Under the pieces are notes generated by a model. The model was not told the DNA's origin. It saw nothing but the letters and a program-made list of their open reading frames with translations, and made no database searches. This document shows positions 4,580 through 42,947 of a stretch of 64,000 nt of DNA, piece by piece; the stretch's first letter is position 1, and every line of letters begins with the position of its first letter. The stretch is from Candidatus Binatia bacterium. Lineage in GTDB: Bacteria > Patescibacteriota > Patescibacteriia > SG8-24. Where the stretch lies: contig DATJFD010000076.1 in NCBI GenBank assembly GCA_035495855.1, forward strand, positions 7,185 to 71,184. Direction: 5' to 3'. A program made the translations under genes and the position numbers.

Positions 4580-4587
<8 letters not shown>

Positions 4588-6313: not shown

Positions 6314-6325
6314 ACCCTCGATCCT

Positions 6326-7537
6326 ATGAACTGGAAAAGGCTCCTCCTCATCATCTTGTTCATCGGCGTGACCCTCGGCATCGGGTACGCCCTGTTCAGG
6401 CTTTTTTTCGCCGCGCCGCAGGAAGTCGTCCCCACGGAAGAACAGAACGCCAACGGCGCCGTCGGCGGCCTGCCGTCGGCCAACGTCGGCGGCGTGCCCG
6501 GCGCTCCCCCGCCGACCGGTGCGCCGGGGCTTCCCCCGGGCGTCTCCCCCGTCGCGAACGGCGGGCTGACGGTCGTGACGCCGGTCGCTCCGGTGCCGAC
6601 CACCGGCGCGACGCTCAGCGCCAGCGGCCAGCTCAACTATTACAACCGCAATGACGGCAAGTTCTACCGCCTCAACCCCGACGGCACGACCACGTCGCTC
6701 TCCAACAAGACCTTTTTCAACGTGAGCAATGCGAAGTTCGACCCGCAGGGCAACAAGGCCATCCTCGAATATCCGGACGGCTCCAACATCATGTTCAACT
6801 TCCAGACCGGCGAACAGGCGACGCTGCCGGCGCACTGGGAGGGCTTCGACTTCAACCCCACGGGCACGCAGATCGTGGCGAAGAGCGTCGGCGTCGATCC
6901 GGATGCGCGCTTCCTGGTGGTCGCGAACCCCGACGGTTCCGGTGCCAAGGCGGTGCAGGAGCTGGGCGAGAACCAGGACAAGGTGCAGGTGAACTGGTCG
7001 CCGAACAACGAGGTCATCGCGACGGCCACGACCGGCCGGAGCTTCGGCGTCGACCGGCAGGAGGTCTACCTCATCGGCCAGAACGGCGAGAACTTCAAGT
7101 CGATGATCGTCGAGGGCCTGGACTTCCGGCCGAAGTGGGCGCCCGGCGGCGAGCAGCTGATGTACAGCGTGGCCGGCTCGCTCTCCGACTGGAAGCCGCA
7201 GCTCTGGATCGTCGACGCGCAGGGCGACAATATCGGCCGCAACCGCCGCAGCATCGCCGTGAACACCTGGGCGGACAAATGCACGTTCCAGGACAAGGAC
7301 AACCTGTACTGCGCGGTCCCCGACGATCTCCCCCGCGGCGCCGGCCTCCAGCCCGACATCGCCAATGACACGCCGGATTCCATCTACAAGATCAACCTCA
7401 CGACCGGCCTGCAGACCAAGATCGCGGTCCCCGAAGGCTCGCACACGATCGGTTCGGTCATGCTCACCCCGGACAAGAAGAGCCTCTTCTTCACGGACAA
7501 GGGTTCCGGCGTGGTCAACAAGATCGCGCTGCCGTGA
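6326..7537 (+). CDS. membrane-anchored TolB-like/PD40 beta-propeller repeat protein
   Basis: N-terminal TM helix (LLLIILFIGVTLGIGYALFRLFF) followed by a Pro/Gly linker. Then repeated units of the type F.P.G..I....DG...I......G (KFDPQGNKAILEYPDGSNI, FNPTGTQIVAKS, WSPNNEVIATA, WAPGGEQLMYS, LTPDKKSLFFTD), typical of PD40/TolB blades. Confidence 0.6.
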   Translation: MNWKRLLLIILFIGVTLGIGYALFRLFFAAPQEVVPTEEQNANGAVGGLPSANVGGVPGAPPPTGAPGLPPGVSPVANGGLTVVTPVAPVPTTGATLSASGQLNYYNRNDGKFYRLNPDGTTTSLSNKTFFNVSNAKFDPQGNKAILEYPDGSNIMFNFQTGEQATLPAHWEGFDFNPTGTQIVAKSVGVDPDARFLVVANPDGSGAKAVQELGENQDKVQVNWSPNNEVIATATTGRSFGVDRQEVYLIGQNGENFKSMIVEGLDFRPKWAPGGEQLMYSVAGSLSDWKPQLWIVDAQGDNIGRNRRSIAVNTWADKCTFQDKDNLYCAVPDDLPRGAGLQPDIANDTPDSIYKINLTTGLQTKIAVPEGSHTIGSVMLTPDKKSLFFTDKGSGVVNKIALP

Positions 7538-7565: not shown

Positions 7566-7595
7566 AAGAGTGGCGGACGTTCCGCCACTCTTTTT
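7566..7595 (+). terminator. rho-independent terminator
   Basis: AAGAGTGGCGGA cgt TCCGCCACTCTT followed by TTT, directly after the stop of the TolB-like gene. It overlaps the track start (7570) of the next ORF, which argues for the later ATG at 7603. Confidence 0.7.
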
Positions 7596-7602
7596 CGGCC
7601 TT

Positions 7603-8292
7603 ATGCGCCATTCGAACGCCTTCCTCGGCGCCGCGATCCTCGCCGCGCTGCTCATCCTGGTCGTCTACGGCATCGCCGCGCTGTCGCCCGTCAATCCGGC
7701 GCCCAAGAGCGTGAACCAGATCGACCTGAGCGCCGCTCCGCTCGACAAGCCGACGGTCTCTTTCGGCAACCCTTCGCGGGGCCCGAAGGACGCCGCGGTG
7801 ACGGTATTCGTGTTCGGCGACTACGTCTGCCCGCCGTGCGCCGAATACGAGGCCACGACCTCCCAGCTCCTGACGGAGTTCCCGAAGGACGTCCGCATCG
7901 TCTGGAAGGACATGCCCAACACGCAGCTCCATCCCGAATCCATCAACGCCGCGGTGGCCGCGCGCTGCGCCGCGGACCAGGGGGCTTTCTGGCAGTATCA
8001 CGACCTTCTGTACCAGGAGCAGGCGTCCATCGGCCCCAAGAACTACACCCCCTTCGCGGCCCAGCTCGGCCTCGACCTCGAAGCCTTCCAGTCCTGTTAC
8101 GACTCCCGCCAGACGCAGCCGCTCGTGCAGCGGGATTACGACGAGGGGCAGCGGCTCCGCGTCGACAGCACGCCGTATACCTTCGTGAACGGCCGCAGGG
8201 TCGCCGGAGCCGTCAGTTACGAGCAGCTGCGCGGCTTCGTCGTCGCCGCGTTGAGCGAAGCGGGCATCCAGCCGGCCCAGGCGGCGCCATGA
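7603..8292 (+). CDS. DsbA-family thiol:disulfide oxidoreductase (membrane-anchored)
   Basis: Start re-picked at MRHSNAFLGAAILAALLILVV (a TM anchor). Thioredoxin-fold CPPC active site (FGDYVCPPCAEYE), then FWQYHD ... P.. and a conserved T-P (VDSTPYTFVNG) cis-Pro loop region. Confidence 0.75.
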   Translation: MRHSNAFLGAAILAALLILVVYGIAALSPVNPAPKSVNQIDLSAAPLDKPTVSFGNPSRGPKDAAVTVFVFGDYVCPPCAEYEATTSQLLTEFPKDVRIVWKDMPNTQLHPESINAAVAARCAADQGAFWQYHDLLYQEQASIGPKNYTPFAAQLGLDLEAFQSCYDSRQTQPLVQRDYDEGQRLRVDSTPYTFVNGRRVAGAVSYEQLRGFVVAALSEAGIQPAQAAP

Positions 8293-8445: not shown

Positions 8446-9585
8446 ATGAACGAGAGGAAAATACTCCCTTTTGCGCGGGCGTTCGTCTTCCTCTCTTTGG
8501 CTCTCTTCGCCGCGAATGCTGGCGCGGTCGTCCAGGAACGTCCTGTGCTGGCCATTAACATTCCGACGATCCAGTTCACCAACGTTTCGGTCGTGAACGG
8601 CGACGGTTATCGCAAGATCGACGTGCCCTGGATCGGGCAATACGTTTCCGGCGTGTACAGCTACGCCGTCGCCATCGCCGGCGTGCTCGCGGGGGTCATG
8701 TTCGTCATCGGGGGGTTCCAATACCTGACCGCCGGAGGCGATGCCAGCCGCGTATCGAAGGCCAAAGAACGCATCCGGGACGCGGTCGTCGGACTGCTCC
8801 TGGCCTTCGGCGCCTACACGATCCTTACCACGCTCAACCCCAGCCTCGTGTCGTTCGAAGCGCTCAATGTCAGGACCGTGGCGCGGCGGACCTTCACGGC
8901 GGAGGAACGCGAGGATTACGGGGACAACACCAACCCTCCGGTCGGGGGCGTGGCCTCCACGAACTCGCCGCCGGTCGCGGGCGGCGCGGGCGCGCAGGCG
9001 GTATGCACGACCATCGAATCCTGTCGGACCATGTGCAACGGCACGCATCCCACGAGCACGCCCGGCGTCATGGACGCGTCTCTCGCCAGGCCGATCCCGA
9101 CGCTTCCCGGTCTGGTCGGCGGCGGTCAGTCGGCGTCGCAGGCCGTCATCGACGGTCTGACCCGCGCGGCCGCGGACGCGCACGCCCGCGGACTGACCAT
9201 CGTGGCGGCCTCCGGCTACCGGCCGCTGGCCACGCAGATCGCGCTCGTCTGCGCCCGCATGGGTGATCCCGCCAGGGAGGCCGGCATCGGCTCCGCGGTC
9301 GCCTGGCCGGGAGGTTCGAACCATGGCGCCGGCTATGCGGTCGATATCCAACTGCGCGAGGACAGCTCCGGGCGCACGCTCGTCGGCAGCGGCAACTGCG
9401 CGGCGCAGGCGGCAGGGACCCTCGCCACGCCCGCCAATTCCCAACTTTTCGATCAGATCATGACGGCCGCGGGCGCACGCAGGTACTCGAACGAGATCTG
9501 GCATTATGAGTTCGGCAGCTCGTCCGGATGCCGCTGCACGTATCCGAACTGCCCCCCGCCGCCGAAAGCCTGCAGCGGTTGCTGA
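8446..9585 (+). CDS. VirB2/TrbC-like pilin module fused to M15 (VanY-type) peptidoglycan peptidase domain
   Basis: Start at MNERKILPFARAFVFLSLALFAANAGA (signal-like); upstream in-frame starts at 8383 and 8395 are possible. Pilin module is LAINIPTIQF ... IDVPWIGQYVSGVYSYAVAIAGVLAGVMFVIGGFQYLTAGGDASRVSKAKERIRDAVVGLLLAFGAYTILTTLNPSLVSF. C-terminal domain carries M15 motifs SGYRPLATQ, GGSNHGAGYAVD and EIWHYEF, plus a Cys-rich tail. Confidence 0.8.
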   Translation: MNERKILPFARAFVFLSLALFAANAGAVVQERPVLAINIPTIQFTNVSVVNGDGYRKIDVPWIGQYVSGVYSYAVAIAGVLAGVMFVIGGFQYLTAGGDASRVSKAKERIRDAVVGLLLAFGAYTILTTLNPSLVSFEALNVRTVARRTFTAEEREDYGDNTNPPVGGVASTNSPPVAGGAGAQAVCTTIESCRTMCNGTHPTSTPGVMDASLARPIPTLPGLVGGGQSASQAVIDGLTRAAADAHARGLTIVAASGYRPLATQIALVCARMGDPAREAGIGSAVAWPGGSNHGAGYAVDIQLREDSSGRTLVGSGNCAAQAAGTLATPANSQLFDQIMTAAGARRYSNEIWHYEFGSSSGCRCTYPNCPPPPKACSGC

Positions 9586-9586
9586 T

Positions 9587-10801
9587 ATGAACGTCCCACG
9601 TCATTCCCGCCTTGCCATCGTCCTCCGGCAGATCTTCCTGCCTGCCTTCCTTTTCGCGGCCCTTTTCTCGGTCGGACAGGACGTCCTCGGGCAAGGTACG
9701 GAACAGTTCCGGCCGAACCTCGCCATCAACATCCCGACCGTCACCTTCGAGAAGATCGTGCGCACCACGGTTCCGGGCGAACAGGGCGCGACCGCCCAGG
9801 ACGTCATCGACGTTCCCTGGATCACGAACTACGTCGCGGGCGTCTACCGCTACGCCACTTCCGTCGCGGTCATCATCGCGGGAGTCATGTTCCTCGTCGG
9901 CGCGTTCCAATATCTGACCGCCGGCGGCGACTCGGGCCGCGTCTCGCAGGGACGCGACAGGATCACGAACGCGGTCATCGGCCTGTTCCTGGTGTTCGGC
10001 GCGTACGTGATGCTGCTGACCATCAACCCCGACCTCGTTTCCCTCCGGTCGCTGCAGATCAAAACGGTCGCGAAGAAGACCTTCACCATCATCTCTGCCG
10101 CCGATTACCAGCGCCTGACCGGGCACGCGCCGCCGCCGACCGGCAGCGGAGGCGGGCCCGGCGGCACCGGCGGCACGTCCGCGGGTGGCAGCGGCATGAT
10201 CGGCATGGCCATGGAGGCTGCGCGGGCCACGAACATCCCAGAGCTCCCCTGCTTCGTGAAGGGCTCGATGCTGGAGGAGTCCGGGGGCAAGGCCAACGCG
10301 CTCGGCCATGACGAGAACGCCGCGACGACGGTGTTCAGCGTCGGCGCGCGGCGCCAGTTCATCAATAGCGGCGTTTTCAAGAGCGGCGCGACCTTCCCGC
10401 CGGTCGGCTGCAACGACAAGTCCTGCCAGAACCAGGGCCCGCGCGCCAACGACGACAACTTCACCGCCTCGTCCCCGCCGGACTACGGCCTCGACTGGCG
10501 GTACTCGCACGGCTTCGGCTCGGGACAGTCGACCATCTTCCCCGGCAGCGCGCCCTGCCCCGGCAACGAGGCGCAAGGGCGCGGCTTCCGGATGGGCAAC
10601 CACTGCTACAGCGCCGCGCAGCTGCTCGACCCGCCTTCGCAGGTCGCCGCCATGGTGGACCACTACAAGATGTGCTGGCAGCGCGGCGGCGGCGACCCCG
10701 CCAGGGCCTACGTCTGCTACGCCGGCACCATCGCGCCGGACAACCCCATCATCGTCAAGCGCGTGAACAACTATAATGCCTGCCGCGCCGCCGGGGGCTA
10801 A
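9587..10801 (+). CDS. VirB2/TrbC-like pilin module fused to lytic-transglycosylase (SLT)-like domain
   Basis: ATG lies 1 nt after the previous stop. Signal-like N-terminus, then LAINIPTVTF ... IDVPWITNYVAGVYRYATSVAVIIAGVMFLVGAFQYLTAGGDSGRVSQGRDRITNAVIGLFLVFGAYVMLLTINPDLVSL. C-domain has MLEESGGKANALGHDE (E-S catalytic-type box), HGFGSGQS and AYVCYAG, resembling SLT motifs. That last call is by eye only. Confidence 0.7.
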   Translation: MNVPRHSRLAIVLRQIFLPAFLFAALFSVGQDVLGQGTEQFRPNLAINIPTVTFEKIVRTTVPGEQGATAQDVIDVPWITNYVAGVYRYATSVAVIIAGVMFLVGAFQYLTAGGDSGRVSQGRDRITNAVIGLFLVFGAYVMLLTINPDLVSLRSLQIKTVAKKTFTIISAADYQRLTGHAPPPTGSGGGPGGTGGTSAGGSGMIGMAMEAARATNIPELPCFVKGSMLEESGGKANALGHDENAATTVFSVGARRQFINSGVFKSGATFPPVGCNDKSCQNQGPRANDDNFTASSPPDYGLDWRYSHGFGSGQSTIFPGSAPCPGNEAQGRGFRMGNHCYSAAQLLDPPSQVAAMVDHYKMCWQRGGGDPARAYVCYAGTIAPDNPIIVKRVNNYNACRAAGG

Positions 10802-10805
10802 GCCT

Positions 10806-12299
10806 ATGCGGAAGAGCCATCACGTCGGAGCGCTCGTCGCCCTCATCGTCTTCGCGCCCCTGGTCGCGGCGGCTTTGCTGTTGTCGCCGGAGGCGGACGC
10901 GGCGCTCAAGAACCGCAACGCCAACACGCCCGCCGCCATCGAAGGGTTCCGTCCGACGCTGGCCATCAACATCCCGACCATCACGTTCTCGGGCATCCAG
11001 GTCGACTCGAACACCAATGGCCAGGAGGGTATCAGCGGTTACATCGACATCCCCTGGCTCGGCGAATACATGAAGGGCATCTATTCGTACGCCGTCGGCG
11101 TCGCCGTGGTGCTCGCGGGCGTCATGATGGTCATCGGCGGCTTCTATTACCTGACCGCGGGCGGCGATGCCTCGCGCGTACAGAAGGGTAAGCAGCGCAT
11201 CGCCGACGCGGTCATCGGGCTGTTCCTCGTCTACGCCGCCTACACCATCCTCATCACGGTCAATCCGCAGCTGACGACCTTCGAATCGCTGCGGATCAAG
11301 CGGTTGCGGCAAAGCCCGTTCGAACTCATCGACGAAGCGCTGCGCACGACGCACGCCGATACCGGCACCGAAAGCAGCTCTTCGGGTTCCACGGGCACGC
11401 CGCCCCCCTACACGCCGCCGCCGGGCGCCGTGGACGCGCCGAACAGCCCGCTGCCGCCGCCCAGCGGCCAGAATTACGTGCAGCTCTACGCCAGCTGTCC
11501 CCTCACGTCACTTCCCGACAAGCACGTGGTCCCCTGCCACGGCGCTTGGGGCGCGGGGGTGACATGCGGGGACGAATCGCCCACGGGGCCTCGCGGCGTC
11601 GCTTTCCGGGACGGCATGCGCGCCCTCATCGCCAGCGAACCGGACATGCGCAGGAAGATCGCCATGGTGGCGGAGGCCGGCGTGAAATGCTTCTCGCACT
11701 ACGGTTCCTGCGGCGCGACGGCGACGACCTGGGCCCGCATCGCCGGCGTCGGTCCCGATCAGCTCGGCCAGAACAGCCCCAGCGCCGGGCAGACGACGCT
11801 CTGGAACCACATCAACCATGAGACCCCCAGGGCGATCGCCCAGCAGCTCCTCGGCGTCGCCTGCGAGACCACCTGCTCAGGCTCGGCCTTCGCGACCGCA
11901 TGCGGGGCGCGCTGCGATCCCGCCACGCCCGCCGCCACGGCGTCCGAGTGCGGAGGACACACCCCCTGCAACACGGTCAAAAGGGACTGCGTGACCGGCG
12001 CCGCCGCGAGGGCCGCGGTGCGCGCCATGTTCGAAGGCCCCGGCGGCCCCGCCGGCTGGCCTGACTCCTGGACCACGGGCCTGGAGATCGGCGATCATGT
12101 CCACATCTACAACGGCAACAGCAGCTGCGGTTCTTCCCATGCCATGATCTTCCTCGGCTGGGCGAGCCCCGGACGCGCCAGGACCGCCAACGGGCAGTGG
12201 GCCGGTCCGCAATGGGAGGACACGAAGTGCTTCATGCGCTCATGCGGAAATTTCTCGATCGTCACGCGCATCTACAAACCCTCCTCGCTCGCGCATTGA
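10806..12299 (+). CDS. VirB2/TrbC-like pilin module fused to Cys-rich putative NlpC/P60-CHAP-like (papain-fold) domain
   Basis: Start at MRKSHHVGALVALIVFAPLVAAALLL. Then LAINIPTITF ... IDIPWLGEYMKGIYSYAVGVAVVLAGVMMVIGGFYYLTAGGDASRVQKGKQRIADAVIGLFLVYAAYTILITVNPQLTTF. A Pro-rich linker follows. C-domain has a candidate nucleophile Cys (YGSCGATATTWARIAG) and His (GDHVHIYNGNSSCGSSHAMIFLGW). Confidence 0.65.
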   Translation: MRKSHHVGALVALIVFAPLVAAALLLSPEADAALKNRNANTPAAIEGFRPTLAINIPTITFSGIQVDSNTNGQEGISGYIDIPWLGEYMKGIYSYAVGVAVVLAGVMMVIGGFYYLTAGGDASRVQKGKQRIADAVIGLFLVYAAYTILITVNPQLTTFESLRIKRLRQSPFELIDEALRTTHADTGTESSSSGSTGTPPPYTPPPGAVDAPNSPLPPPSGQNYVQLYASCPLTSLPDKHVVPCHGAWGAGVTCGDESPTGPRGVAFRDGMRALIASEPDMRRKIAMVAEAGVKCFSHYGSCGATATTWARIAGVGPDQLGQNSPSAGQTTLWNHINHETPRAIAQQLLGVACETTCSGSAFATACGARCDPATPAATASECGGHTPCNTVKRDCVTGAAARAAVRAMFEGPGGPAGWPDSWTTGLEIGDHVHIYNGNSSCGSSHAMIFLGWASPGRARTANGQWAGPQWEDTKCFMRSCGNFSIVTRIYKPSSLAH

Positions 12300-12312
12300 G
12301 CCGTCCCCGGAT

Positions 12313-14085
12313 ATGACCGTGCGGAGCCTTCTTCGCAGGATCCTTCCTTCGCTCGCCTTCCTGACGGCGGCCTTCCCGGCCTCGGCCCTGCAGGACAAAC
12401 CCGTCCTCGCCATCGAGATACCGACGGTGCATCTTTCGAATCTCACGTCGGAGAGCGGTTCGTACGGCATCCCCTGGCTCGGCGAGTATGTCGCCGGCGT
12501 TTATTCTTACGCCGTCACGGTCGCCGCGGTCATCGCGGGCATCATGCTCGTGATCGCGGGCTTCCAGTACGTCACGGCGGGCGGCGACGCCTCGCGCGTC
12601 AGCAGGGCCAAGGACCGCATCAAGGACGCCGTCATCGGCCTGTTCCTCGTGTTCGGGGCTTATACCGTCCTCGTCAATCTCAATCCCGAGCTCGTCTCCT
12701 TCAGGCCCATCGCGGTGCAGAAGGTCCTCGGCCATCAGATCGAAATGCAGAACCAGTTCGGCGGCGCCGATCCGGCGTCGTTCACGCGGGGTCCTGCTCC
12801 CGGGGTCGCCTCTCCGGAACAACCCGTGCAGACGGGCGCGACGTTCGACAGCGGCGGCAATTCCAAGATCTCGCTCGACGCGACCCTTCCGCCGAACGTC
12901 GATCCGTACGGCAGCAACGTGGTCCGGGAACCCGTGCCGAACGTCCCGCAGGGAGGCGCGCAGGGCGGGAACGTGAACGCGGGCGAGGGCGGAGGGGCGG
13001 CCACGGGCAGCCAGAACGCGCCGCCGGCGACGCCCGGAAGGCTCGTCGACCTCTATGCCCAGGGGAACCCTTACGGCGTGCGCGTGCAGGGCGATGACAC
13101 CAATTTCGCCAGCAAGATGAACAGCATCTGCGTGGACCGGATGAAGGGCGGCGGGAACCTCTCGAAAGAGGAGGTCATGCAGCGCGCCGCCGCCGTCGTA
13201 CGGGTCTGGATCAACGAATCGATGCGGGGCGGTTCGGCGTACGTCCGCAACCCTTCGGGGAACGGCAACGCGGTGCCGGACTGGGGCTTCGTCGTCGCCT
13301 CGAACGCCGGCGACCCCTGCCAGATCGCCGAGGCGTCGGCACGGGGCGCCGACCCGGCGAAGGTAGAGTCCTGCAAGGCCTGCATGAATCCCGTGCTGCA
13401 GTACCAGGTCAACACCACCGGCGCGTGGGGACACGATGCTGCCGTGCAAAAATACAACGAGATGGGCTGCCCGGGGCTGAACTGCCCGGGCGTGCACGCC
13501 GCGCTGCAGCAGGCGTATTCGGTCTGCTATGCGAAGCCCGCCTTCGATGCGCACATCGTCGGCGGCGACTGCACCAATTGGCTGCTGTCCCTCACGCGCT
13601 GCGCGCTTGGCGCAAAGTTCGTCGGCACGGCGTTCACCGCTCCGCAGAAGGCCGACAAGATCTGGACGAACGGGCCTCCCATCACCGTCGGCAAGAACAA
13701 GAAGGTCGTCAATCCGGGCCCGTGGCGCGACGCCATCCAGCCGCTCGGCGGTCCGCAGTTCATGGATTTCTACCATGGCGGCAACGACAGCCTCTGCCAT
13801 TCGTTCATGTACGTGGGCGGCATGGGCCTCAAGACGACCGCCGGCCAGGTCATCTACTGGATCGAGATGGGCGGCGGCGGCGCCTTCGACACCGTCATCA
13901 GGCCCACGAACGCGCAGGAAGGGTTCCAGGCGGTGGCCAACGTGCCCGGTCACGGCGCCAGCATGGGCATCAAGCTGCATTTCATCCCTTCGATCTCCGC
14001 CATGGTCACCGGATGCTTCCTGGGCGACAAATCGAAGTTCTGGTACTACCGGACGATAGACAAATACATGGCGACGCAGAAATAG
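12313..14085 (+). CDS. VirB2/TrbC-like pilin module fused to large Cys-rich putative NlpC/P60-like domain
   Basis: Signal-like N-terminus, then LAIEIPTVHL ... YGIPWLGEYVAGVYSYAVTVAAVIAGIMLVIAGFQYVTAGGDASRVSRAKDRIKDAVIGLFLVFGAYTVLVNLNPELVSF. C-domain has GGDCTNWLLSLTRC and MDFYHGGNDSLCHSFMYVGG, paralleling the Cys/His boxes of the preceding gene. Confidence 0.65.
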   Translation: MTVRSLLRRILPSLAFLTAAFPASALQDKPVLAIEIPTVHLSNLTSESGSYGIPWLGEYVAGVYSYAVTVAAVIAGIMLVIAGFQYVTAGGDASRVSRAKDRIKDAVIGLFLVFGAYTVLVNLNPELVSFRPIAVQKVLGHQIEMQNQFGGADPASFTRGPAPGVASPEQPVQTGATFDSGGNSKISLDATLPPNVDPYGSNVVREPVPNVPQGGAQGGNVNAGEGGGAATGSQNAPPATPGRLVDLYAQGNPYGVRVQGDDTNFASKMNSICVDRMKGGGNLSKEEVMQRAAAVVRVWINESMRGGSAYVRNPSGNGNAVPDWGFVVASNAGDPCQIAEASARGADPAKVESCKACMNPVLQYQVNTTGAWGHDAAVQKYNEMGCPGLNCPGVHAALQQAYSVCYAKPAFDAHIVGGDCTNWLLSLTRCALGAKFVGTAFTAPQKADKIWTNGPPITVGKNKKVVNPGPWRDAIQPLGGPQFMDFYHGGNDSLCHSFMYVGGMGLKTTAGQVIYWIEMGGGGAFDTVIRPTNAQEGFQAVANVPGHGASMGIKLHFIPSISAMVTGCFLGDKSKFWYYRTIDKYMATQK

Positions 14086-14126
14086 GCATTGCGGCCATTC
14101 CTGCGCCGTGCCACAGTCCATGCGTT

Positions 14127-15500
14127 ATGAAGACCCCCGCGACCGTCTACACGTGCAGTGAATGCGACGCCCAGAGCCCGAAGTGGACCGGCCAATGCCT
14201 CGAGTGCGGGGCCTGGGGCTCGATGGGCGCGGCGCCCGCCGCCCGACGCTCCCCCGCCGCCGCGGCAGCGCGCCCGGCCAAGACCCTCGCCTTCGGCGAG
14301 CTCGCTTCCGAGAAGGAGCGCCGCCTGCCGACCGGCATTGCCGAAGCCGACCGCGTGTTCGGCGGCGGCATCGTGCCCGGTTCGGTCACGCTCCTGGGCG
14401 GCGAGCCCGGCATCGGCAAATCGACGCTCGCCATGATCATCGCCTCGCGGCTCGCGGGCGGCGGCCGCAGGACGCTCTATTGCTCCGGCGAGGAATCGGC
14501 GAGCCAGGTGAAGATGCGCGCCGACCGGCTGGCGCTCGCGCAGCAGGGCCTGTTCTTCCTGAGCGAGACCGACGTGGCGACGCTCATCGCCACGCTCGAG
14601 GCCGAGAAGCCGGCGTTCGCGGTCATCGACTCCGTGCAGATGCTCCGCTCCGACGACATTCCGGCCGAGGCCGGCGCCGTCGGCCAGGTGCGCGCGGCCG
14701 CGGCGCGGCTCGTGGGCTTCGCCAAGGCCTCCGGCATCCCGGTTCTGCTCATCGGCCACGTCACCAAGGACGGCATGGTCGCGGGCCCCAAGACCCTCGA
14801 GCATCTCGTGGACACCGTGCTGTCCTTCGAAGGCGAGCGCACGCATCCGCTCCGGACGCTGCGCGCCCTCAAGAACCGCTTCGGCTCCACCGACGAGACC
14901 GGCATCTTCGAGATGCGGGACGAGGGACTGGCAGAGATCAAGAACCCGTCCGCGTACCTCCTCGAGGCGCGCCAGGAAGGCGTTCCGGGCTCGGCGGTGT
15001 CGTGCATCATGGAAGGCAGCCGGCCGGTGCTCGTGGAAGTGCAGGCGCTCGTCCAGAAGTCCCCCTTTGGCTATCCGGCGCGGAAGTCCTCGGGCATCGA
15101 CCAGTCGCGCATCGACATGCTGCTCGCGGTCCTCGCGCGGCGCGCGGGGCTCGACTTCGGCCAGCACGACGTCTTCGTGAACGTGGTCGGCGGGCTCAAG
15201 ATCAAGGAACCCGCGGCCGACCTGGCCGTGGCGCTGGCGCTCGCGTCCGCCCTGCGGCACGCGCCGCTCCCTCCGCGCTTCGCCGCCTGGGGCGAGATCG
15301 GGCTCGGCGGCGAGCTCCGCCCCGCTCCCGGCCATGACCGCCGCGCCGCCGAAGCCGCGGCGCTCGGCATCGTCCGCGCCGCCGCGCCGGTCCCCCGCTC
15401 CGCGGGCAAGAAAGCGGCCGGCATCACCATCATCGACGTCAGGAACGTGAAAGACGCCGTCGCCGCGGCGCAAGCCCCCGCTCCGCGACAGGTCGCCTGA
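14127..15500 (+). CDS. radA: DNA repair protein RadA/Sms
   Basis: Start re-picked at MKTPATVYTCSECDAQSPKWTGQCLECGAWGSM (zinc finger). Walker A GGEPGIGKST, the KNRFG motif (LRALKNRFGSTDE) and a Lon-like C-terminal domain are present. The track ORF (13425..) carries a spurious N-terminal extension overlapping the previous gene. Confidence 0.9.
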   Translation: MKTPATVYTCSECDAQSPKWTGQCLECGAWGSMGAAPAARRSPAAAAARPAKTLAFGELASEKERRLPTGIAEADRVFGGGIVPGSVTLLGGEPGIGKSTLAMIIASRLAGGGRRTLYCSGEESASQVKMRADRLALAQQGLFFLSETDVATLIATLEAEKPAFAVIDSVQMLRSDDIPAEAGAVGQVRAAAARLVGFAKASGIPVLLIGHVTKDGMVAGPKTLEHLVDTVLSFEGERTHPLRTLRALKNRFGSTDETGIFEMRDEGLAEIKNPSAYLLEARQEGVPGSAVSCIMEGSRPVLVEVQALVQKSPFGYPARKSSGIDQSRIDMLLAVLARRAGLDFGQHDVFVNVVGGLKIKEPAADLAVALALASALRHAPLPPRFAAWGEIGLGGELRPAPGHDRRAAEAAALGIVRAAAPVPRSAGKKAAGITIIDVRNVKDAVAAAQAPAPRQVA

Positions 15501-22527: not shown

Positions 22528-24426
22528 CTATTTCTTCTGGCCTTCCGCGAGCGACGCCTCGTACTCCTTCTTGGCCGCTTCGATCTCGAGCAGCTGCTGC
22601 GGGTTGGTGGTGACGACCTGGTCCTCGGCGTACGACGCGACCACCTTCACCGCCGCGTGCTTGTTGCCCGCGAAGAAGATGCCCTCGCCGACGCCGCACT
22701 CGAGCAGCAGGTACTTCTCGCCCTCGGTCAGGAGGAAGGTCTTGGCGATGTTGTCGATGGCGGCCGGCGACTGCTTGAGCAGCATCTGCATGGCCGAGTT
22801 GGTGACGATGGCCTGCCCGTAGGTGTTGCGGAGGAAGTCGTTGACGTCCTGCGTGATGGTCGTGACGCCGAGATAGTATTTGCGGCAGCGTTTCACCAGC
22901 GCGAAGATGAACTTCGCCGAGTCCTCGTTCTGCATGAGCCACCAGGCTTCGTCGATGACGAGGATGCGCTTCTTGCGCTCGGAGCGGACCACGTTCCAGA
23001 TGTAGTTGACGATGGCGTAGATGGCGAGCGGCCGGAGCTCGTCCTCGAGGTCGCGGACGGAGAAGGTCACGAGGATGTTCTTCATCGTCACGGTCGACGG
23101 CGAGTTGAACAGGCCGGCGAACGTGCCCTCGGTGAACTTCTTGAGGCGGATGACGAGGTCCTTCGTCCCCTCCATGCCCTCAAGCACCTCGACGAAGTCC
23201 TGCATGATCGGCGGCTCCGCCGTGGCGAGGTCGGCGTCCGGCGTGATGTCCTTCTTGGCGTAGGTCTCGAGCAGCGCGCGGTCGAGGATGGAGTCCTCCT
23301 GCGGGGTGACGCTCTGCAGCATGATGCGCAGCAGGCCCTTCACGGTGATGACGGCGCTGCGGATGATGTCCTCGGTGGTGATCTGCTCGCCGACGGCGCG
23401 CGGCAGGTCGAACGGGTTGATCTTCGCGTCCGACGCGAGGGAGATGTTGATGTACGTCCCGCCGACCGCGTCGGACAGGTGCTTGTACTCCATTTCAGGG
23501 TCGATGACGATGACCTCCACGCCCATCATGAGCGAGCGGAGGATCTCCAGCTTGACGGTGTAGGATTTGCCGGCGCCCGAGGTGGCGAACACGATATAGT
23601 TCGCGTTCTGCATCGAGAAGCGGTCGAACAGCACGAGGCTGTTGTTGTGGCGGTTGATGCCGAAAAGGATGCCGTTGTCGGAGGTGAGGTCGGCGGAGAT
23701 GAACGGGAACGACGACGCCACCGGGCTCGAGTTCATGTTGAACGTGATCATGAGCTCGTCGTTGCCCTGGGGGATCGTCGAATTGAAGCCCTGCTCGGCC
23801 TGGTAGAAGACGCGCTTGGTGTAGATGAGCTTGCCGCCGAAGAGCGCTTCGACGTCCTCCGTCTGCTTGTCGAGCTCCTTCTTGTCGGCGCCGTACACGG
23901 TGACGTAGAGCGCGAACTGGAAGAAATGCTCGGTCCCCTGCGAGAGCGAGTCGCGCAGGTCTTCGATGTCGCGGAGCGCGGTCTCCCGGATCGGGTCGCG
24001 CGGCGCGCCCTTCTCGGCGTCGGAGAGGATCTGCGCCTCGAGCGTACCGACCTTCTTCTTGAGCTGCTTCAGGATGACGTCAGGCTTCACCGGATAGAAG
24101 AACATGGCCACGTCGAGCGGGTGGTTCATGTTCACGATCGGCGCGAACCAGCCGAGCGAGATGTAGCGCGGGTACGTGACGACGAAGACCGTCCTCACGA
24201 ACGTCTCGTTGAGGACGAGGTAGGTCGGCTCGACCTTCAGGCCGGCGGGCGCGATGATGTCCTTGATGGAGACGACGCCCTTGCGGTAGATGCGCTCCTC
24301 TTCGAGGAGCTCGCGCTCCTTGGCGATCTGCTCCTGCTCCTGGGCGCCCTTGCCCGGCGGCGCGGCCTTCTTGGGAGGCGCGCCCGCTGCCGGCGACGGC
24401 GTGAATTGTCCGGGCTGGAATGCCAT
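22528..24426 (-). CDS. virB4: VirB4/TrbE-family type IV secretion ATPase, central + ATPase part
   Basis: 632 aa. Walker A FATSGAGKSYT, Walker B ILVIDEAWWLM, and a TQDVNDF motif. The preceding segment (YPRYISLGWFAPIVNMNHPLDVAMFFYP) is typical of the VirB4 middle domain. Confidence 0.9.
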   Translation of the reverse strand: MAFQPGQFTPSPAAGAPPKKAAPPGKGAQEQEQIAKERELLEEERIYRKGVVSIKDIIAPAGLKVEPTYLVLNETFVRTVFVVTYPRYISLGWFAPIVNMNHPLDVAMFFYPVKPDVILKQLKKKVGTLEAQILSDAEKGAPRDPIRETALRDIEDLRDSLSQGTEHFFQFALYVTVYGADKKELDKQTEDVEALFGGKLIYTKRVFYQAEQGFNSTIPQGNDELMITFNMNSSPVASSFPFISADLTSDNGILFGINRHNNSLVLFDRFSMQNANYIVFATSGAGKSYTVKLEILRSLMMGVEVIVIDPEMEYKHLSDAVGGTYINISLASDAKINPFDLPRAVGEQITTEDIIRSAVITVKGLLRIMLQSVTPQEDSILDRALLETYAKKDITPDADLATAEPPIMQDFVEVLEGMEGTKDLVIRLKKFTEGTFAGLFNSPSTVTMKNILVTFSVRDLEDELRPLAIYAIVNYIWNVVRSERKKRILVIDEAWWLMQNEDSAKFIFALVKRCRKYYLGVTTITQDVNDFLRNTYGQAIVTNSAMQMLLKQSPAAIDNIAKTFLLTEGEKYLLLECGVGEGIFFAGNKHAAVKVVASYAEDQVVTTNPQQLLEIEAAKKEYEASLAEGQKK

Positions 24427-24432
24427 AGGTCG

Positions 24433-25137
24433 TCAAACGGTGGTGATCTCTTCCTGCACGCGCAGCTTCGCCGAATCCTGCATCTTCTGGCTGTCGTACA
24501 CCTCCGGGTTGTAGACGCGGTAGAACAGCTCGATGAGGCTCTGGGTGTCGAGCTGCACCGCCTTGAGGCCCATGCTGTTGAGGTTGCCGATGATGTGCTC
24601 GACGCGCACCTGGAGGTCGTTCTTGCGCTGCCGGAACCGCTCCTCGGCGAGCTTGACGAACAGGGCCGGCGTGAAGGCCTCCGACATCCGGGCCACGAAG
24701 CCCTTCTGCTTGTCCGACAGCGGGTTGTACGGGACGATCACGAAGAACGACTTCTGCATGATCTGCCCGAGGGTGACGAGCTCGGTCACGAAGTTCCTGT
24801 AGTCCGCGATCTGGATGCGGAGCAGCTCGTTGGTCTGGTTCTTCTCCGATTCCTTCAGGCGCTCGATGTAGTTGTCGATGTTGAGCTTGCGCGACTGGAT
24901 GACGACCTGCAGCGGGAACTCCAGCGCGTTGAGGAACTGCACGTACGCGGCGATGATGGCGTTCTGCTCGTCCTCCGACTTCAGCGCGAAGTTGATGCTC
25001 GCGACGATGAGCACGGCGCGCAGGGTGCCGTCCTTCATGATCACGACGTCCTCCTTGATCTCGTTGATGTCCAAATAGCGCTGGGTCGCGGGACCCGGCT
25101 TGCTGCCGGCGAGTTTCGGGGATTGCATTTCGGGCAT
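24433..25137 (-). CDS. virB4: VirB4 N-terminal domain protein (separate ORF, in frame with the ATPase ORF)
   Basis: 234 aa. YLDINEIKEDVVIMKDGTLRAVLIVASINFALKSEDEQNAIIAAYVQFLNALEFPLQVVIQSRKLNIDNYI matches the N-terminal pattern of Gram-positive-type VirB4 (PrgJ/TraE-like). The stop TGA (24433-24435) is in frame with the downstream ATG (24426), only 2 codons apart. Confidence 0.75.
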   Translation of the reverse strand: MPEMQSPKLAGSKPGPATQRYLDINEIKEDVVIMKDGTLRAVLIVASINFALKSEDEQNAIIAAYVQFLNALEFPLQVVIQSRKLNIDNYIERLKESEKNQTNELLRIQIADYRNFVTELVTLGQIMQKSFFVIVPYNPLSDKQKGFVARMSEAFTPALFVKLAEERFRQRKNDLQVRVEHIIGNLNSMGLKAVQLDTQSLIELFYRVYNPEVYDSQKMQDSAKLRVQEEITTV

Positions 25138-25206
25138 AGCTGCGAGCTTCGAGCTGCGAGCTTCGAGCTTGTGTCGTCACAAGCTCCAGGCTCACGGCTC
25201 GAGGCT
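25138..25206. repeat. heptamer-periodic inverted repeat (AGCTKCG word family)
   Basis: Left arm AGCTGCG AGCTTCG AGCTGCG AGCTTCG AGCTTGT G. Right arm CACAAGCTCCAGGCTCACGGCTCGAGGCT. It fills the gap between the prgI-like stop and the virB4-N start exactly. Confidence 0.65.
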
Positions 25207-25630
25207 AATCCTCGGGGTTGTAGACTCCGCCGGTGTTCACGACGAGCGAGAGCTCGGTGAGCTTGGTCGCGGCGAGCGGCTCCTTCCGGATGCGCGCGGG
25301 CGGCGGAGGCGGCGGCGGCTTCTTGATGATGTCCATGAGCTCGCCGTCGGTATACTCCTTGTTCCAGATGCGCAGGCCGGGCCGTCGGAACGTCTGGATC
25401 ATGTTCAGCAGGAAGAAGTGGAACGGCTGGCCGTTGACCCGGAAGAAGGCGAAGATGCCGCCGATGACGAAGGTCGTGAGGCCGACGAGGAGGAAGAGGC
25501 CGAAATCCGCGAGCTTGTACTCGATGAACATGATCAGCGTCGTGACGAGCAGGATCAGGAACTGCCGCGTCGTGAGGGGGCCGATGATCTTGTCCTCTAC
25601 GTCGATGAATTGGGGTACGACGTACCGCAT
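25205..25630 (-). CDS. PrgI-family (VirB3-like) T4SS membrane protein
   Basis: Start re-picked at MRYVVPQFIDVEDKIIGPLTTRQFLILL (ATG 25630). Two TM helices. The YxVPxxxxxEDKIxGxLTxRQF opening is characteristic of PrgI/VirB3-like proteins encoded just upstream of VirB4. A poly-Pro tract follows. Confidence 0.7.
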   Translation of the reverse strand: MRYVVPQFIDVEDKIIGPLTTRQFLILLVTTLIMFIEYKLADFGLFLLVGLTTFVIGGIFAFFRVNGQPFHFFLLNMIQTFRRPGLRIWNKEYTDGELMDIIKKPPPPPPPARIRKEPLAATKLTELSLVVNTGGVYNPED

Positions 25631-25684
25631 GGGCGCATTATACCATAGAAGGAGCAGGATTGTCCCCAAGTGAGCCAAAAAACG

Positions 25685-27058
25685 TCAGCCGAACCGCAAT
25701 TTCCGGTTAAGCTCCATGACGGAGTCGAACTCGGCCTTGGAAAGGTAGGGGGCGGCCTTGCTCTCAAGCTCGGCAATGACCTCGGTGACCGGCTTCCCCT
25801 CGAGGCTTTTGCGGAGGATGTCGAGGTACAGCTTATTGACCTCGCTGTCCTGCCAGGCGCGGATGCCCTGCGTTTTGACGTCGAAGGACTGTTCCTCGAG
25901 CAGGTCGATCTTGTCCTTGAGCTTGAGCGTTGCCTCGCGGGGATCCTTGGAGAGCCTCCGGAAGTCCTTGATGGTCATGGAGCGCAGCTCTTCTACGGGG
26001 CCGGTGAGCTTGGGCGAGAATTTCACGTCGGACATGACGGGCTGGGCCTGGGGAGAGGCCTGCGCCGGCTGCTGGGCCGAGGGCTGCGGCGCAGGGCGGA
26101 CGGCGGGCTGGGCTGGCTGCGCCGGCGCGGGGCCGGACGGAGACGCGGGCGGCGGTTCGACGACGACGGTCGTCGGCGTCGGCTTGCCTGAAGAATCGAG
26201 GCCCACCACGGGGACGACCTTCGGTTCGCTGGGCGCCGCATGGACCGGTTCCCGCGGCGGGGCGGCGGCGACGCCGGAAGCGGCGACGCCGGAACGCTGC
26301 AGCAGGTCGCTGAACGTCTGCTCCCTGTTGGCCTGGTCCTTCTTGTCGGCGGTGTCCTGTCCGGTCAGCACCTTCTCGGTCTGCTCGGCGACGTACTTGG
26401 CCTTCTCGCCCGCCTTCTCGCCCGCGAGGCCCGAGTGGAAGTCGCGGTTCTTGCGCTGGAGCTCGTCCATCACGCGATCCGCGTCGGCGTCGCTCATGCC
26501 CATGCCGCCGCTCTGCACCGGCATCGTGAACTTCGATTTGGTCTCCAGTCCGTCACGAAGGTCGCGGAAGAACAGGGAGACGAGCATCCTGAAACGGCGT
26601 TTGACGTCCTCGTCGGGCATGGGCACGCCGCTGGCAGCCACGGCCTCGTCGACGATGGCGTCAAGATGCGTGACCTCGGACTTCTTTTCCGGCTGGACGT
26701 CCTTCTTGGCGATGATGGCTTCGATCTTCTTGAGATCGGCCGCGTCCTTGCCCGCGTCCTGGACGTAGTCGTCCTTGGTGACCTTCGCGAGGGAGACTTC
26801 CGGCTGGGAGGCCGCGACAGGCTCCGCCTTCTCGACCAGGGTAAGGGCGGGCGGCCGCACCGAGGGCGCGGACCCTTCTACCGCGGCGGCGGGGCCGGTC
26901 GGCAGGTTCGGCGGCGGCGCCGCTTCTTTTTTGGCGCCGGAATCGACGAAATCAAGCCCCTTCACGAGGAGCTTCTTGCCGGACTTGTCGACGACGGGGA
27001 TGTCCTCGTCGAGTAGGTCGAGCCAAGGCGTTGGAGGGGTTCCGGGAGCATCAGCCAT
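25685..27058 (-). CDS. hypothetical soluble Pro/Ala-rich protein sharing a domain with the upstream gene
   Basis: 457 aa with no TM segment. Contains DVKRRFRMLVSLFFRDLRDGLETKSKFTMPVQSGGMGMSDADADRVMDELQRK (motif at nt 26468-26509), a long P/A/Q linker, and a conserved-looking C-terminal about 110 aa. Confidence 0.6.
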   Translation of the reverse strand: MADAPGTPPTPWLDLLDEDIPVVDKSGKKLLVKGLDFVDSGAKKEAAPPPNLPTGPAAAVEGSAPSVRPPALTLVEKAEPVAASQPEVSLAKVTKDDYVQDAGKDAADLKKIEAIIAKKDVQPEKKSEVTHLDAIVDEAVAASGVPMPDEDVKRRFRMLVSLFFRDLRDGLETKSKFTMPVQSGGMGMSDADADRVMDELQRKNRDFHSGLAGEKAGEKAKYVAEQTEKVLTGQDTADKKDQANREQTFSDLLQRSGVAASGVAAAPPREPVHAAPSEPKVVPVVGLDSSGKPTPTTVVVEPPPASPSGPAPAQPAQPAVRPAPQPSAQQPAQASPQAQPVMSDVKFSPKLTGPVEELRSMTIKDFRRLSKDPREATLKLKDKIDLLEEQSFDVKTQGIRAWQDSEVNKLYLDILRKSLEGKPVTEVIAELESKAAPYLSKAEFDSVMELNRKLRFG

Positions 27059-27073
27059 ACGCGGGAGGGACGT

Positions 27074-28390
27074 CTAGATCTCGATCTTGTCTTTCCAAGA
27101 GAACGATCCTTTTTCCATGTCGAAAGCGACGAGGTCGGCGTAACGGTCGTAACCCTGCTTCTTGAGGACATTGATGACGCGCAGGCCGAACCGGGCCGAC
27201 TCGCCATCGTCATAGCCCGCGATGCCGCGCAGGATCAGCTGGAAGAGCATGTTCATGAACCTGGGATCGGTGCGCTCGTTCGGATACCGCTCGAGGTCGG
27301 CCTGCATCCCCTTGTCGGCGAGGTACTGGCTCACGATGTTGGCGTAGCGCTCATCGTTGTCGACCGACTCGGAGACCTGGTCGCCGTCGGCCATGGCGAT
27401 CAGCCCGGCCACGACGTACAGAGGGTCGGTGGGGCGGAGGTCCGGCGGGAACAGCACCTGGTAATACGCGTCGCGCATCTTCACCGGGTCCTTCTCCGTG
27501 ACCTGCGTGAAACGCTGGACCCGTTTGGAGAGTCCTTCCTGTTCTTCCGCCGTGCCGCTGTAGAGCTTCTTGATCTCAATGGCGCTGAGCTCTCTTTTTG
27601 GCGCGGGACTTTCGGCGGACGGCGCGGCGCCTTCGGGGCTTTTTTTTTCCTCCTTGGGAGCGGCGTCCTCGCTGAACGCCACCATGCGCATCTTGCTCGA
27701 AAGGATCGACATCACGCGCTCGGCGTCCGCGTCCGACATCTCAAGGCCGCCCGTCTTCTTCGCTTTCATGAGCATCTCCTTCGTGTCGGCGTCGTCGCGC
27801 ACGGCGCGAAGGCGCGATTCGATGATGTGGGCGAGCCGTTTGCGGGCGTCCTCGTCGAGGCTTTCGATGCCCGTCGCCTCGGCGATCTCGCGGGCGCCTT
27901 CCCTGTACCCGACCCGCCGCATCTCGATCTGCTTCTCCGGATACTTCTTGATGTCGCCGCCGAGCTCGGACACGAGGCCCGCGACGTCTCCGAGATACGC
28001 CTGCGCGGGCAGGAAGACGTAGCCGAGGACGTCGGTGATGACCGCCGCGGCCTTCTCTTCCTTGTCGTCCGGCCAATCCAGCCGGATCCACGCGCGGTCG
28101 GGAAAATCGGCGAGCGGAATGTCGGTGAAGAAGGTCTGCAGCTCGGTCCAGTAGATGAGGTCCCTATCGTCCTGCGACAACCCGTGCTCGTCGAAGATCT
28201 TCTTATGCAGGGCCGCGACCTCGTCGGAAAGCAGGTATTTCCGGATGGCGACCGGGACGTCCTGGAGCTTGGCCAGGATGACCTTGAGCGCGTTCGGCTG
28301 CGCGGGCGCCGCCGGGGCGTCCTCCGCGGGAGCGCCCGCGGCTTCGGCCGCGACCGCGCCCTCTTCGGTTGTCATCGTTTCATCGGCCAT
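27074..28390 (-). CDS. hypothetical soluble protein sharing a domain with the downstream gene
   Basis: 438 aa with no TM segment. Contains DARKRLAHIIESRLRAVRDDADTKEMLMKAKKTGGLEMSDADAERVMSILSSK (motif at nt 27710-27751). Confidence 0.6.
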   Translation of the reverse strand: MADETMTTEEGAVAAEAAGAPAEDAPAAPAQPNALKVILAKLQDVPVAIRKYLLSDEVAALHKKIFDEHGLSQDDRDLIYWTELQTFFTDIPLADFPDRAWIRLDWPDDKEEKAAAVITDVLGYVFLPAQAYLGDVAGLVSELGGDIKKYPEKQIEMRRVGYREGAREIAEATGIESLDEDARKRLAHIIESRLRAVRDDADTKEMLMKAKKTGGLEMSDADAERVMSILSSKMRMVAFSEDAAPKEEKKSPEGAAPSAESPAPKRELSAIEIKKLYSGTAEEQEGLSKRVQRFTQVTEKDPVKMRDAYYQVLFPPDLRPTDPLYVVAGLIAMADGDQVSESVDNDERYANIVSQYLADKGMQADLERYPNERTDPRFMNMLFQLILRGIAGYDDGESARFGLRVINVLKKQGYDRYADLVAFDMEKGSFSWKDKIEI

Positions 28391-28402
28391 AGTGCGTGTC
28401 GT

Positions 28403-31108: not shown

Positions 31109-31302
31109 GTGCTCGGTCACGACATGGCGGAGTTCTTTTTTGGCAGGGTGTGTACAACTCCCTGCTGACTCCGTCTTCCGCCTTATGATACCACGAACGG
31201 CGCTGCCGACGAAGCGGCGGGGATAAGCCCGCGCGACCCATGAAAAATACCGCCTCTCCCTGGCTGGGAAAGGCGGTATTTTCGCTAGATCAAGCGGATT
31301 TT

Positions 31303-42090: not shown

Positions 42091-42116
42091 CGTCGTTTTC
42101 TTAAAAAGATTGACGG

Positions 42117-42926: not shown

Positions 42927-42947
42927 CGTAGCTTACCAAAAATCGGG

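Follow-up and report, generated by a model that had tools for sequence, protein, structure and literature searches.

The window analyzed here is a stretch of 64,000 nucleotides (nt) from Candidatus Binatia bacterium (GTDB Patescibacteriota; SG8-24; assembly GCA_035495855.1, contig DATJFD010000076.1, positions 7,185 to 71,184). It carries an array of four genes, designated G1 to G4, each of which encodes a two-helix module assigned by Pfam to the T4SS_pilin family (PF18895; T4SS, type IV secretion system) followed by a long, Cys-rich C-terminal part. An earlier sequence-only reading of this DNA had described four adjacent same-strand genes at these positions; the open reading frames (ORFs), all with ATG starts and separated by gaps of 1, 4, and 13 nt, lie as it described them, and every motif that it quoted was recovered in place (Table 1).

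Architecture of the array

The four proteins follow a common order, namely a signal peptide, a LAI(N/E)IPT(I/V) box, the two-helix module, a linker rich in Pro, Gly, Ser, and Thr (30-110 aa), and a Cys-rich C-terminal domain. With the linkers included, the C-terminal extensions measure 237 (G1), 246 (G2), 333 (G3), and 455 aa (G4). Pairwise comparison of these C-terminal parts detected no similarity, in agreement with the earlier description of four differing domains. The same description had treated G3 and G4 as divergent paralogues, a view that we reject, as their C-domains have no detectable similarity and their profile comparison with hhalign gave a probability of 1.2%.

The array region has a G+C content of approximately 66%, and all four reading frames display the excess of G+C at third codon positions that is typical of real genes; the array is a genuine feature rather than a product of chance. 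For G4, the recorded gene call has its start two codons downstream of the one used here. A scan for promoters and terminators gave signals at chance level.

Table 1. Positions of the array, its protein segments, and the neighboring genes discussed in the text (numbering of the window).
Feature	Position	Strand	Remarks
G1	8446..9585	+	379 aa ORF
G1 signal peptide	aa 1-25	+	Predicted by hydropathy; A-x-A site present
G1 LAINIPT box	8548-8568	+	
G1 T4SS_pilin module	8632-8832	+	PF18895, 39.7 bits
G1 VanY/M15 zinc peptidase domain	9136-9513	+	Pfam
G2	9587..10801	+	404 aa ORF
G2 LAINIPT box	9719-9739	+	
G2 T4SS_pilin module	9818-10012	+	PF18895, 37.0 bits
G2 putative divergent SLT/lysozyme-like domain, after a Gly-rich linker	~10199-10798	+	
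G3	10806..12299	+	497 aa ORF
G3 LAINIPT box	10959-10979	+	
G3 T4SS_pilin module	11058-11252	+	PF18895, 36.7 bits
G3 orphan Cys-rich domain, after a Pro/Ser/Thr linker	~11469-12296	+	
G4	12313..14085	+	590 aa ORF
G4 LAIEIPT box	12406-12426	+	
G4 T4SS_pilin module	12496-12672	+	PF18895, 35.9 bits
G4 348-aa domain, after a 110-aa linker	13039-14082	+	All-alpha half, then alpha+beta half
403-aa membrane-anchored protein	6326..7537	+	N-terminal anchor, Pro/Gly linker, faint WD40-type/beta-propeller matches (Pfam)
DsbA-like thiol-disulfide oxidoreductase	7570..8292	+	Thioredoxin_4 89.4 bits, DSBA 57.6 bits; directly upstream of G1
T4SS gene cluster	22528..31399	-	8.4 kb from array; radA, recG, and tRNA genes between
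VirB4-like ATPase, 632 aa	22528-24426	-	P-loop_TraG 89.2 bits, AAA_10
Possible VirB4 N-domain ORF, 234 aa	24433-25137	-	TraC_F_IV E 8.5e-4 (weak)
PrgI/VirB3-like protein	25205-25678	-	PrgI 35.9 bits
Three further ORFs of the T4SS cluster (457, 438, and 998 aa)		-	No assigned family

The pilin-like module

All four proteins exceed the Pfam gathering cut-off of T4SS_pilin (26.6 bits), with E-values of 5e-10 to 8e-9, and the shared module is placed in this family by these profile matches. Sub-threshold matches were obtained to further pilin-like families with a link to conjugation, namely DUF4134, DUF7103, and the NCBIfam model Mbov_0395 (pilin-like conjugal transfer protein). The four modules share 54-65% identity at the protein level, and the DNA encoding them forms a 281-nt repeat present in four copies with 64-72% identity; a hidden Markov model of the module, run across the 64-kb window, found no copy beyond G1-G4.

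Hydropathy analysis of each protein delineates, after the signal peptide, two hydrophobic helices with a short basic loop between them (TAGGDASRVSKAKERIRDA is one example), and A-x-A sites are present in the signal segments of G1, G3, and G4. The segment that directly follows helix 2 is conserved as N-P-x-L-(V/T)-x-(F/L) in all copies and in the relatives described below. An AlphaFold2 model of the module, built from a seven-sequence alignment with a mean predicted local distance difference test (pLDDT) score of 68.8, consists of a beta-hairpin followed by helices at residues 36-70 and 75-105, and the post-helix segment is modeled as a short helix (107-110) and a short strand (115-117).

The four C-terminal domains

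The assignment of G1 to the VanY/M15 zinc peptidases, made earlier from motifs, is borne out by Pfam matches to VanY (43.9 bits, cut-off 25) and Peptidase_M15 (29 bits, cut-off 27) and by alignment of the C-domain to YodJ and VanXYg in the PDB. The motifs SGYR (256-259), SNHGAGYAVD (291-300), and EIWHYE (350-355) provide a complete set of M15 zinc ligands (S-x-H-x-x-G-x-A-x-D and E-x-x-H) together with the catalytic Glu, and by these profile and motif matches G1 is a VanY/M15 zinc peptidase with all of its motifs. In searches of PHROGs, weak endolysin and tape-measure matches were returned for G1 only.

The C-domain of G2 is, with moderate confidence, a divergent SLT/lysozyme-like glycan-cleaving domain. 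The SLT-like character proposed earlier finds no Pfam match in G2 itself, nor any PDB match, and is carried instead by its homologues, which occur in related loci L040, L042, L003, L002, and L021. The L021 homologue (phmmer E 8e-20 to G2) passes the SLT cut-off (22.1 versus 21.3 bits), and the L002 homologue has an SLT match over the Glu-Ser region (E 0.006). In A4, a four-member alignment of the G2 family, the residues E73, S74, G151, G153, Q156, Y220, and G222 are invariant and form Glu-Ser, G-x-G-x-x-Q, and Y-x-G boxes; the candidate catalytic residues of G2 are Glu231-Ser232, which lie inside EESGGKANALGHDEN. The A4 profile found no match among PDB sequences, and the searches of PDB sequences with profiles A4, A5, A6, and A7 gave nothing meaningful.

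G3 and G4 end in orphan domains that, judged from their conserved residues, are probably Cys-His thiol peptidases or amidases. The Cys-His dyad sought in both was found in conserved form. In G3, Cys302 (within GSCG) and His445 (within SHAMIFLG, conserved as SHA-x-IF-x-G) are invariant in five sequences, and homologues of the domain occur only in the close relatives L042, L040, and L041; a metagenome scan with exact G3 C-domain peptides gave no match, and a later metagenome scan with the module alignment recovered G3 homologues. In G4, Cys420, His496, and Glu518 are conserved, and the family retains G-D-C, C-H-x-x-M-Y-x-G-G, and W-x-E-M-G-G-G-G motifs. An exhaustive HMMER search of 1.84 billion representatives found ten relatives of G4; seven of these cover the region upstream of the domain and all seven bear the same module by inspection, with the remaining three being fragments or starting at the domain. 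The AlphaFold2 model of the G4 domain (pLDDT 78.3, predicted template modeling score 0.83) places the Cys at the N-terminus of a helix and the His and Glu on successive strands, which is a papain-like order. An NlpC/P60-CHAP context had been suggested for both proteins. For G4, hhalign aligned the domain to an NlpC/P60-like cluster of relatives' extensions with a probability of 69.9%, with Cys and His in register, which is weakly consistent with that suggestion; for G3 the corresponding value was 20% and the alignment covered the His region only.

Word-indexed searches returned no match with the G2 C-domain, two proteins only with the N-module, and only G4 itself plus one module relative with full-length G4, the index evidently being devoid of this lineage.

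Predicted topology and the DsbA-like neighbor

Every Cys of the four proteins (8-15 per protein) sits in the C-terminal part, and the gene directly upstream of G1 encodes a DsbA-like thiol-disulfide oxidoreductase. Of 95 related loci, 54 likewise have a DsbA-like gene no more than 6 kb from the module genes. From hydropathy, charge distribution, and the position of the Cys residues beside a DsbA-like gene, we infer Sec-dependent export and a hairpin with both the N- and C-terminus outside the cell. The C-domains are accordingly predicted to be extracellular, as had been proposed, because the hydropathy profile, the basic loop between the helices, the Cys-rich C-domains, and the adjoining DsbA-like gene all point to that placement. 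The DsbA-like protein is likely the oxidant of these exported domains, which would then depend upon disulfide bonds.

Distribution among Patescibacteria

Scans that used the module alignment as query against GTDB genomes and JGI metagenomes yielded 94 loci, and the sensibly named source records are all metagenome-assembled genomes of Patescibacteria (Uhrbacteria, Falkowbacteria, Komeilibacteria, and Nomurabacteria); the genome of the window is itself Patescibacteria-like. Counted over 81 loci, the complete and unique ORFs that bear the module number 158; most loci have one to three of them, and the median Cys count is 8. The sequence following helix 2 had a median length of 177 aa, reaching at least 100 aa in 149 and at least 200 aa in 52 of the 158 proteins; only 7 had extensions shorter than 50 aa.

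Eighty-five extensions, four of them from the window itself, were scanned with Pfam, where counts overlap if an extension matches related families. Matches were obtained to VanY (9), 3D (7), SLT (6), Peptidase_M15 (5), SLT_3 (4), NlpC/P60 (4), Glucosaminidase (3), M15_4 (2), Amidase_2 (2), M15_3 (2), SLT_2 (2), C39_2 / C70 (1), CHAP (1), and C-type lysozyme (1), which amounts to approximately seven classes of peptidoglycan hydrolase plus two papain-like peptidase families, the latter in one protein. Four further single weak matches (DUF5496, Toxin_7, and CBM_5_12 among them; E 9e-4 to 7e-3) were to non-enzyme families. Because the extensions of the relatives carry so many wall-hydrolase families, the fusion of module and hydrolase is a family-wide design and is not peculiar to this genome.

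The chromosomal slot, in the order 403-aa protein, DsbA, array, and RadA, is syntenic across relatives and variable in content. Locus L042, whose RadA is 87% identical to that of the window, has counterparts of G1 (87%), G2 (79%), and G3 (65%) and no G4. In L041 (RadA 83%), one gene is G1-like but divergent (36%), another has a C-domain that distantly resembles that of G3, and a third is G3-like. Locus L003 (RadA 74%) contains a gene whose C-domain was grouped with G1 by BLAST with no VanY match in Pfam, a G2-like SLT gene, and a glucosaminidase gene that occupies the position of G4, and locus L071 (RadA 46%) has a single G1-like gene (35%). Locus L096 (GCA_964407925.1) carries two G4-like genes and an SLT gene, and beyond radA (13660-15444) it has a fourth gene with the module, whose Cys-His domain is distantly G4-like; inside that array, at 10012-10425, a small membrane protein of 137 aa is encoded, and the locus ends with an HTTM/VKGC-domain gene.

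When the modules of the window were compared with those of L003, L041, and L040, the modules of one genome resembled one another more closely than they did those of orthologous genes in more remote genomes, with the C-domains remaining orthologous. For example, the module of the G2-like protein of L003 is 61% identical to its neighbor's module and 52% identical to that of G2, and its extension (linker plus C-domain) is 65% identical to that of G2. This pattern points to gene conversion acting on the module or to an exchange of C-domain cassettes.

Two other origins were considered. A phage lysis-cassette origin is argued against by a scan of viral contigs for the module, which found no relative, and the view of the array as part of a mobile element is rejected on account of the conserved housekeeping genes on its flanks and the synteny of the slot.

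Genomic surroundings and the T4SS gene cluster

Upstream of the array and on the same strand lie, in order, genes for LemA, HtpX, ClpB, a 577-aa protein, the 403-aa protein, and the DsbA-like protein. The 403-aa protein has homologues at the corresponding place in 15 related loci as well as in L096. The 577-aa protein is a Gly-rich membrane protein with C-terminal hydrophobic segments and is likewise a conserved neighbor; the two genes together span 4580-7537 (+ strand). Downstream of the array are radA, recG (on the opposite strand), and tRNA genes.

The T4SS gene cluster lies beyond these genes and on the other strand. Its two VirB4 ORFs are 6 nt apart; the gene may be split or frameshifted here, or VirB4 may truly consist of two parts. 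Pfam found no pilin and no VirB1-like hydrolase family among the ORFs of the cluster that were scanned, and no relaxase or coupling protein among the scanned ORFs of the window. Directly upstream of the T4SS genes is a 3595-aa ORF, followed by a TSP3_bac-repeat protein and KsgA (31303-43889, - strand), and the low-GC relative L001 has the same order of giant protein, TSP3, and KsgA. G+C is 61-71% throughout the window, which is very high for Patescibacteria; loci of the L001 type appear AT-richer, as judged from the Lys/Asn/Ile-rich P0002 rather than from computed G+C.

Discussion

Taken together, these results lead us to propose, with moderate confidence, that G1-G4 form an operon of membrane-tethered peptidoglycan hydrolases in which a VirB1-type wall-opening activity is fused to pilin-like subunits of a T4SS or pilin apparatus. 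Each protein would be exported by Sec and its signal peptide removed, and the hydrophobic helices would enter the membrane as a hairpin whose basic loop stays in the cytoplasm and whose two termini face outward. The Pro/Gly/Ser-rich linker would then hold a disulfide-bonded catalytic domain, probably oxidized by the adjoining DsbA-like enzyme, in the zone of the wall. The combined bond specificities would cover the stem peptide (G1) and the glycan strand (G2), with G3 and G4 contributing probable thiol peptidase or amidase activities, and the enzymes would act where the pilin-like subunits gather, on the cell's own wall and possibly also on that of the host at a contact site.

This proposal draws upon the literature as well as upon the array. 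A PF18895 pilin gene has been found in the vicinity of virB4 in 1135 of 1948 assemblies (Quinonero-Coronel et al. 2025, PMC12102498), most such genomes are without VirB1, and the T4SS locus of Southlakia encodes, as separate proteins that are all essential, pilins, a peptidase, and a lysozyme homologue (PMC12102498). By an argument of the Rosetta-stone type, the joining here in single proteins of pilin-like subunits and hydrolases that are separate and essential there speaks for a function in common. In addition, the within-genome homogenization of the modules hints at a partner that all of them share for docking or assembly, which also favors the proposed operon. On these grounds we infer a functional link between the array and the T4SS cluster.

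Several results weigh against this proposal. The pilin nature claimed earlier for the module stands with respect to PF18895 and is not borne out with respect to TrbC/VirB2 proper: PF04956 gave no match to G1-G4 at E <= 1, hhalign of the module profile against A. tumefaciens VirB2 (a validated reference sequence) gave a probability of 0.8%, the module profile found no match among PDB sequences, and a Foldseek search of the PDB with the module model, with a best E of 1.0 and generic helical hairpins dominating the matches, was uninformative on pilin membership. The array also lies among housekeeping genes (ClpB, DsbA, RadA, and RecG) and outside the T4SS cluster, and just one of the 95 related loci has virB4 less than 6 kb away. 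In approximately 17 relatives (L001 6248-11128, L006, L010, L012, L015, and others) a module gene is located inside the pyruvate:ferredoxin oxidoreductase (POR) operon, between the genes for the alpha and beta subunits, with a second module gene after porB; the C-extensions of these POR-embedded genes form a cluster of 17 with no Pfam match, and the operon is a conserved but odd location for a "pilin." With respect to the enzymes, VanY-type proteins often serve in wall maturation and not in wall opening. The G3 C-domain with its A7 profile and the G4 domain gave no match in Pfam or among PDB sequences, and the G4 model gave no Foldseek match in the PDB or BFVD, such that the putative hydrolase nature of these two proteins is read from their motifs only. 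Our confidence is held at a moderate level because of this housekeeping neighborhood, the loose linkage to the T4SS, and the lack of a family assignment for G3 and G4.

The housekeeping neighborhood could also be read as a sign that the proteins are autolysins, with the pilin-derived hairpin a mere anchor and the enzymes remodeling the cell's own wall during growth and division with no role for a T4SS. The conserved chromosomal slot, the module gene within the POR operon across approximately 17 species, and the near absence of virB4 within 6 kb all fit such a role, as do the conservation of G1 (87%) and G2 (79%) between the window and L042, which is about that of RadA (87%), and the tether, which would limit the reach of the enzymes to the cell's own wall. 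What autolysins would not account for is that more than 150 hydrolases of unrelated folds share one module, or that the modules are homogenized within genomes. Moreover, the number of genes (one to four) and the types of enzymes vary among close relatives, which is unusual for core autolysins, and the published proximity of PF18895 pilin genes to virB4 is likewise left aside. We regard this explanation as rather unlikely and less probable than the operon of tethered hydrolases proposed above.

Those same observations on module homogenization and variable gene content would also fit a reading in which the modules polymerize, singly or with one another, into a T4SS-dependent, VirB2-type filament whose hydrolases, displayed on its surface or tip, digest the wall of a host where the two cells touch. 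Subunits that must pack together would be homogenized, and enzyme content does differ among close relatives, since L042 is without G4 despite 87% identity in RadA and L003 has a glucosaminidase. The module belongs by profile to the T4SS_pilin family, its only copies in a 64-kb window that bears virB4 and prgI are those of G1-G4, the C-termini are predicted to face outward, and pilin arrays are essential in an epibiotic Saccharibacterium. However, helical pilin packing would hardly leave room for a globular domain of 240-455 aa on each subunit, structural and sequence links to solved pilins were not found, and the genomic linkage to the T4SS is weak. Nor is there a short, module-only shaft gene in the window, and few of the relatives (7 of 158) have an extension below 50 aa. 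An enzyme-armed pilus, appealing though sterically difficult, is in our judgment doubtful. The broader version, in which Patescibacteria as epibionts would use a T4SS-dependent filament or surface array, each subunit with a different hydrolase, to cut the host wall, we regard as rather unlikely; if such a filament were real, it would also offer a role for the T4SS and pilin arrays, which are essential to these organisms but still lack an explanation.

Processing of a precursor, in which a cut after helix 2 at NP-x-L-V-x-F would set free a soluble hydrolase and leave a short mature pilin, much as the RP4 TrbC propilin is trimmed at its C-terminus, would suit the strongly conserved N-P-x-L-(V/T)-x-(F/L) segment and the long disordered linker behind it, but it is very improbable, as it is pure analogy, no protease gene or recognizable cleavage motif was identified, and the helix and strand modeled within that segment indicate that its role may be structural.

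Comparison with known systems

Canonical VirB2/TrbC/TraA pilins share with the window proteins a signal peptide, two hydrophobic helices, a short basic loop, and a predicted orientation with both termini outside. The module of the window adds an extracellular IPT box, a beta-hairpin, and the conserved post-helix motif, and unlike VirB2/TrbC pilins, which end shortly after helix 2, each protein continues for 237-455 aa. With the PF04956 and VirB2 comparisons negative and the Foldseek search uninformative, the module is best placed in the T4SS_pilin family, and a kinship to VirB2/TrbC proper has no direct signal in sequence or fold.

Polymorphic toxins and effectors, such as the wall-degrading Tae and Tge proteins of type VI secretion and LXG proteins of type VII secretion, combine a conserved N-terminal trafficking module with a variable C-terminal enzyme. 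The array resembles these in having one N-module with many unrelated C-terminal hydrolases and a content that varies among close relatives. It differs in that its genes are 1-13 nt apart with no intervening (immunity) ORF, and in that its N-module is a predicted membrane hairpin, such that the proteins are probably retained and not injected.

CwlT and TcpG are two-domain VirB1-like hydrolases of Gram-positive systems, as are PrgK of pCF10 and TraG of pIP501. The PrgK/TraG type, likewise a membrane-anchored peptidoglycan hydrolase, opens the wall for the T4SS with a glycan-cleaving domain (SLT or glucosaminidase) and a peptide-cleaving domain (CHAP or NlpC/P60) (PMC12102498). In the window, by comparison, the activities are spread over four genes that lie outside the T4SS operon, the anchor is a two-helix hairpin of a pilin family, and the set extends to a metallopeptidase of the M15/VanY type and to two orphan domains. 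No match to families of the VirB1/TrsG/CD419 type was found, although no search aimed at them was made.

Tandem arrays of VirB2-like pilins in Patescibacteria have already been published (PMC12102498, PMC10633639, PMC12857230), and the pilin array of Southlakia epibionticum is essential (Wang et al. 2023, PMC10633639). These arrays resemble the one described here in Pfam family (PF18895, with PF04956 also reported), in tandem same-strand arrangement (2-11 divergent copies), and in occurring in Patescibacteria genomes with a monoderm-type T4SS (VirB4 and PrgI). The published pilins were treated as small proteins, whereas each copy in the window bears its long extension, and the window array is located between dsbA and radA, unlike those inside a T4SS cluster. 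Neither PMC12102498, including its supplement, which lists the matches as VirB2, nor PMC10633639 mentions C-terminal enzyme domains. Our literature search found no description of C-terminal hydrolase fusions, as the sequence-only reading had supposed, although absence from the texts searched is no proof and domain-architecture pages may already show such combinations. What appears to be new here is the systematic fusion of a known pilin-array family to diverse wall hydrolases, with a DsbA partner and a variable chromosomal slot.

Implications

The literature openly treats the function of the T4SS and of its many VirB2-like pilins in Patescibacteria as unexplained, although they are essential for epibiotic growth (PMC11665869, PMC12857230, PMC10633639). 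In one large lineage, represented by the window and approximately 80 related loci, the module of the pilin family nearly always comes joined to a wall hydrolase of one class or another, which leads to the testable hypothesis that pilin-like subunits and wall cleavage form one functional unit. The analysis also supplies candidate enzymes, including two orphan Cys-His domains, one of which (G4) has a confident model that matches no known fold. The combination of DsbA with a module-hydrolase array can serve as a marker architecture for annotation, as such genes are now called pilins or hypothetical proteins. Importantly, the array may explain how these ultra-small bacteria open a cell wall, whether their own or that of a host.

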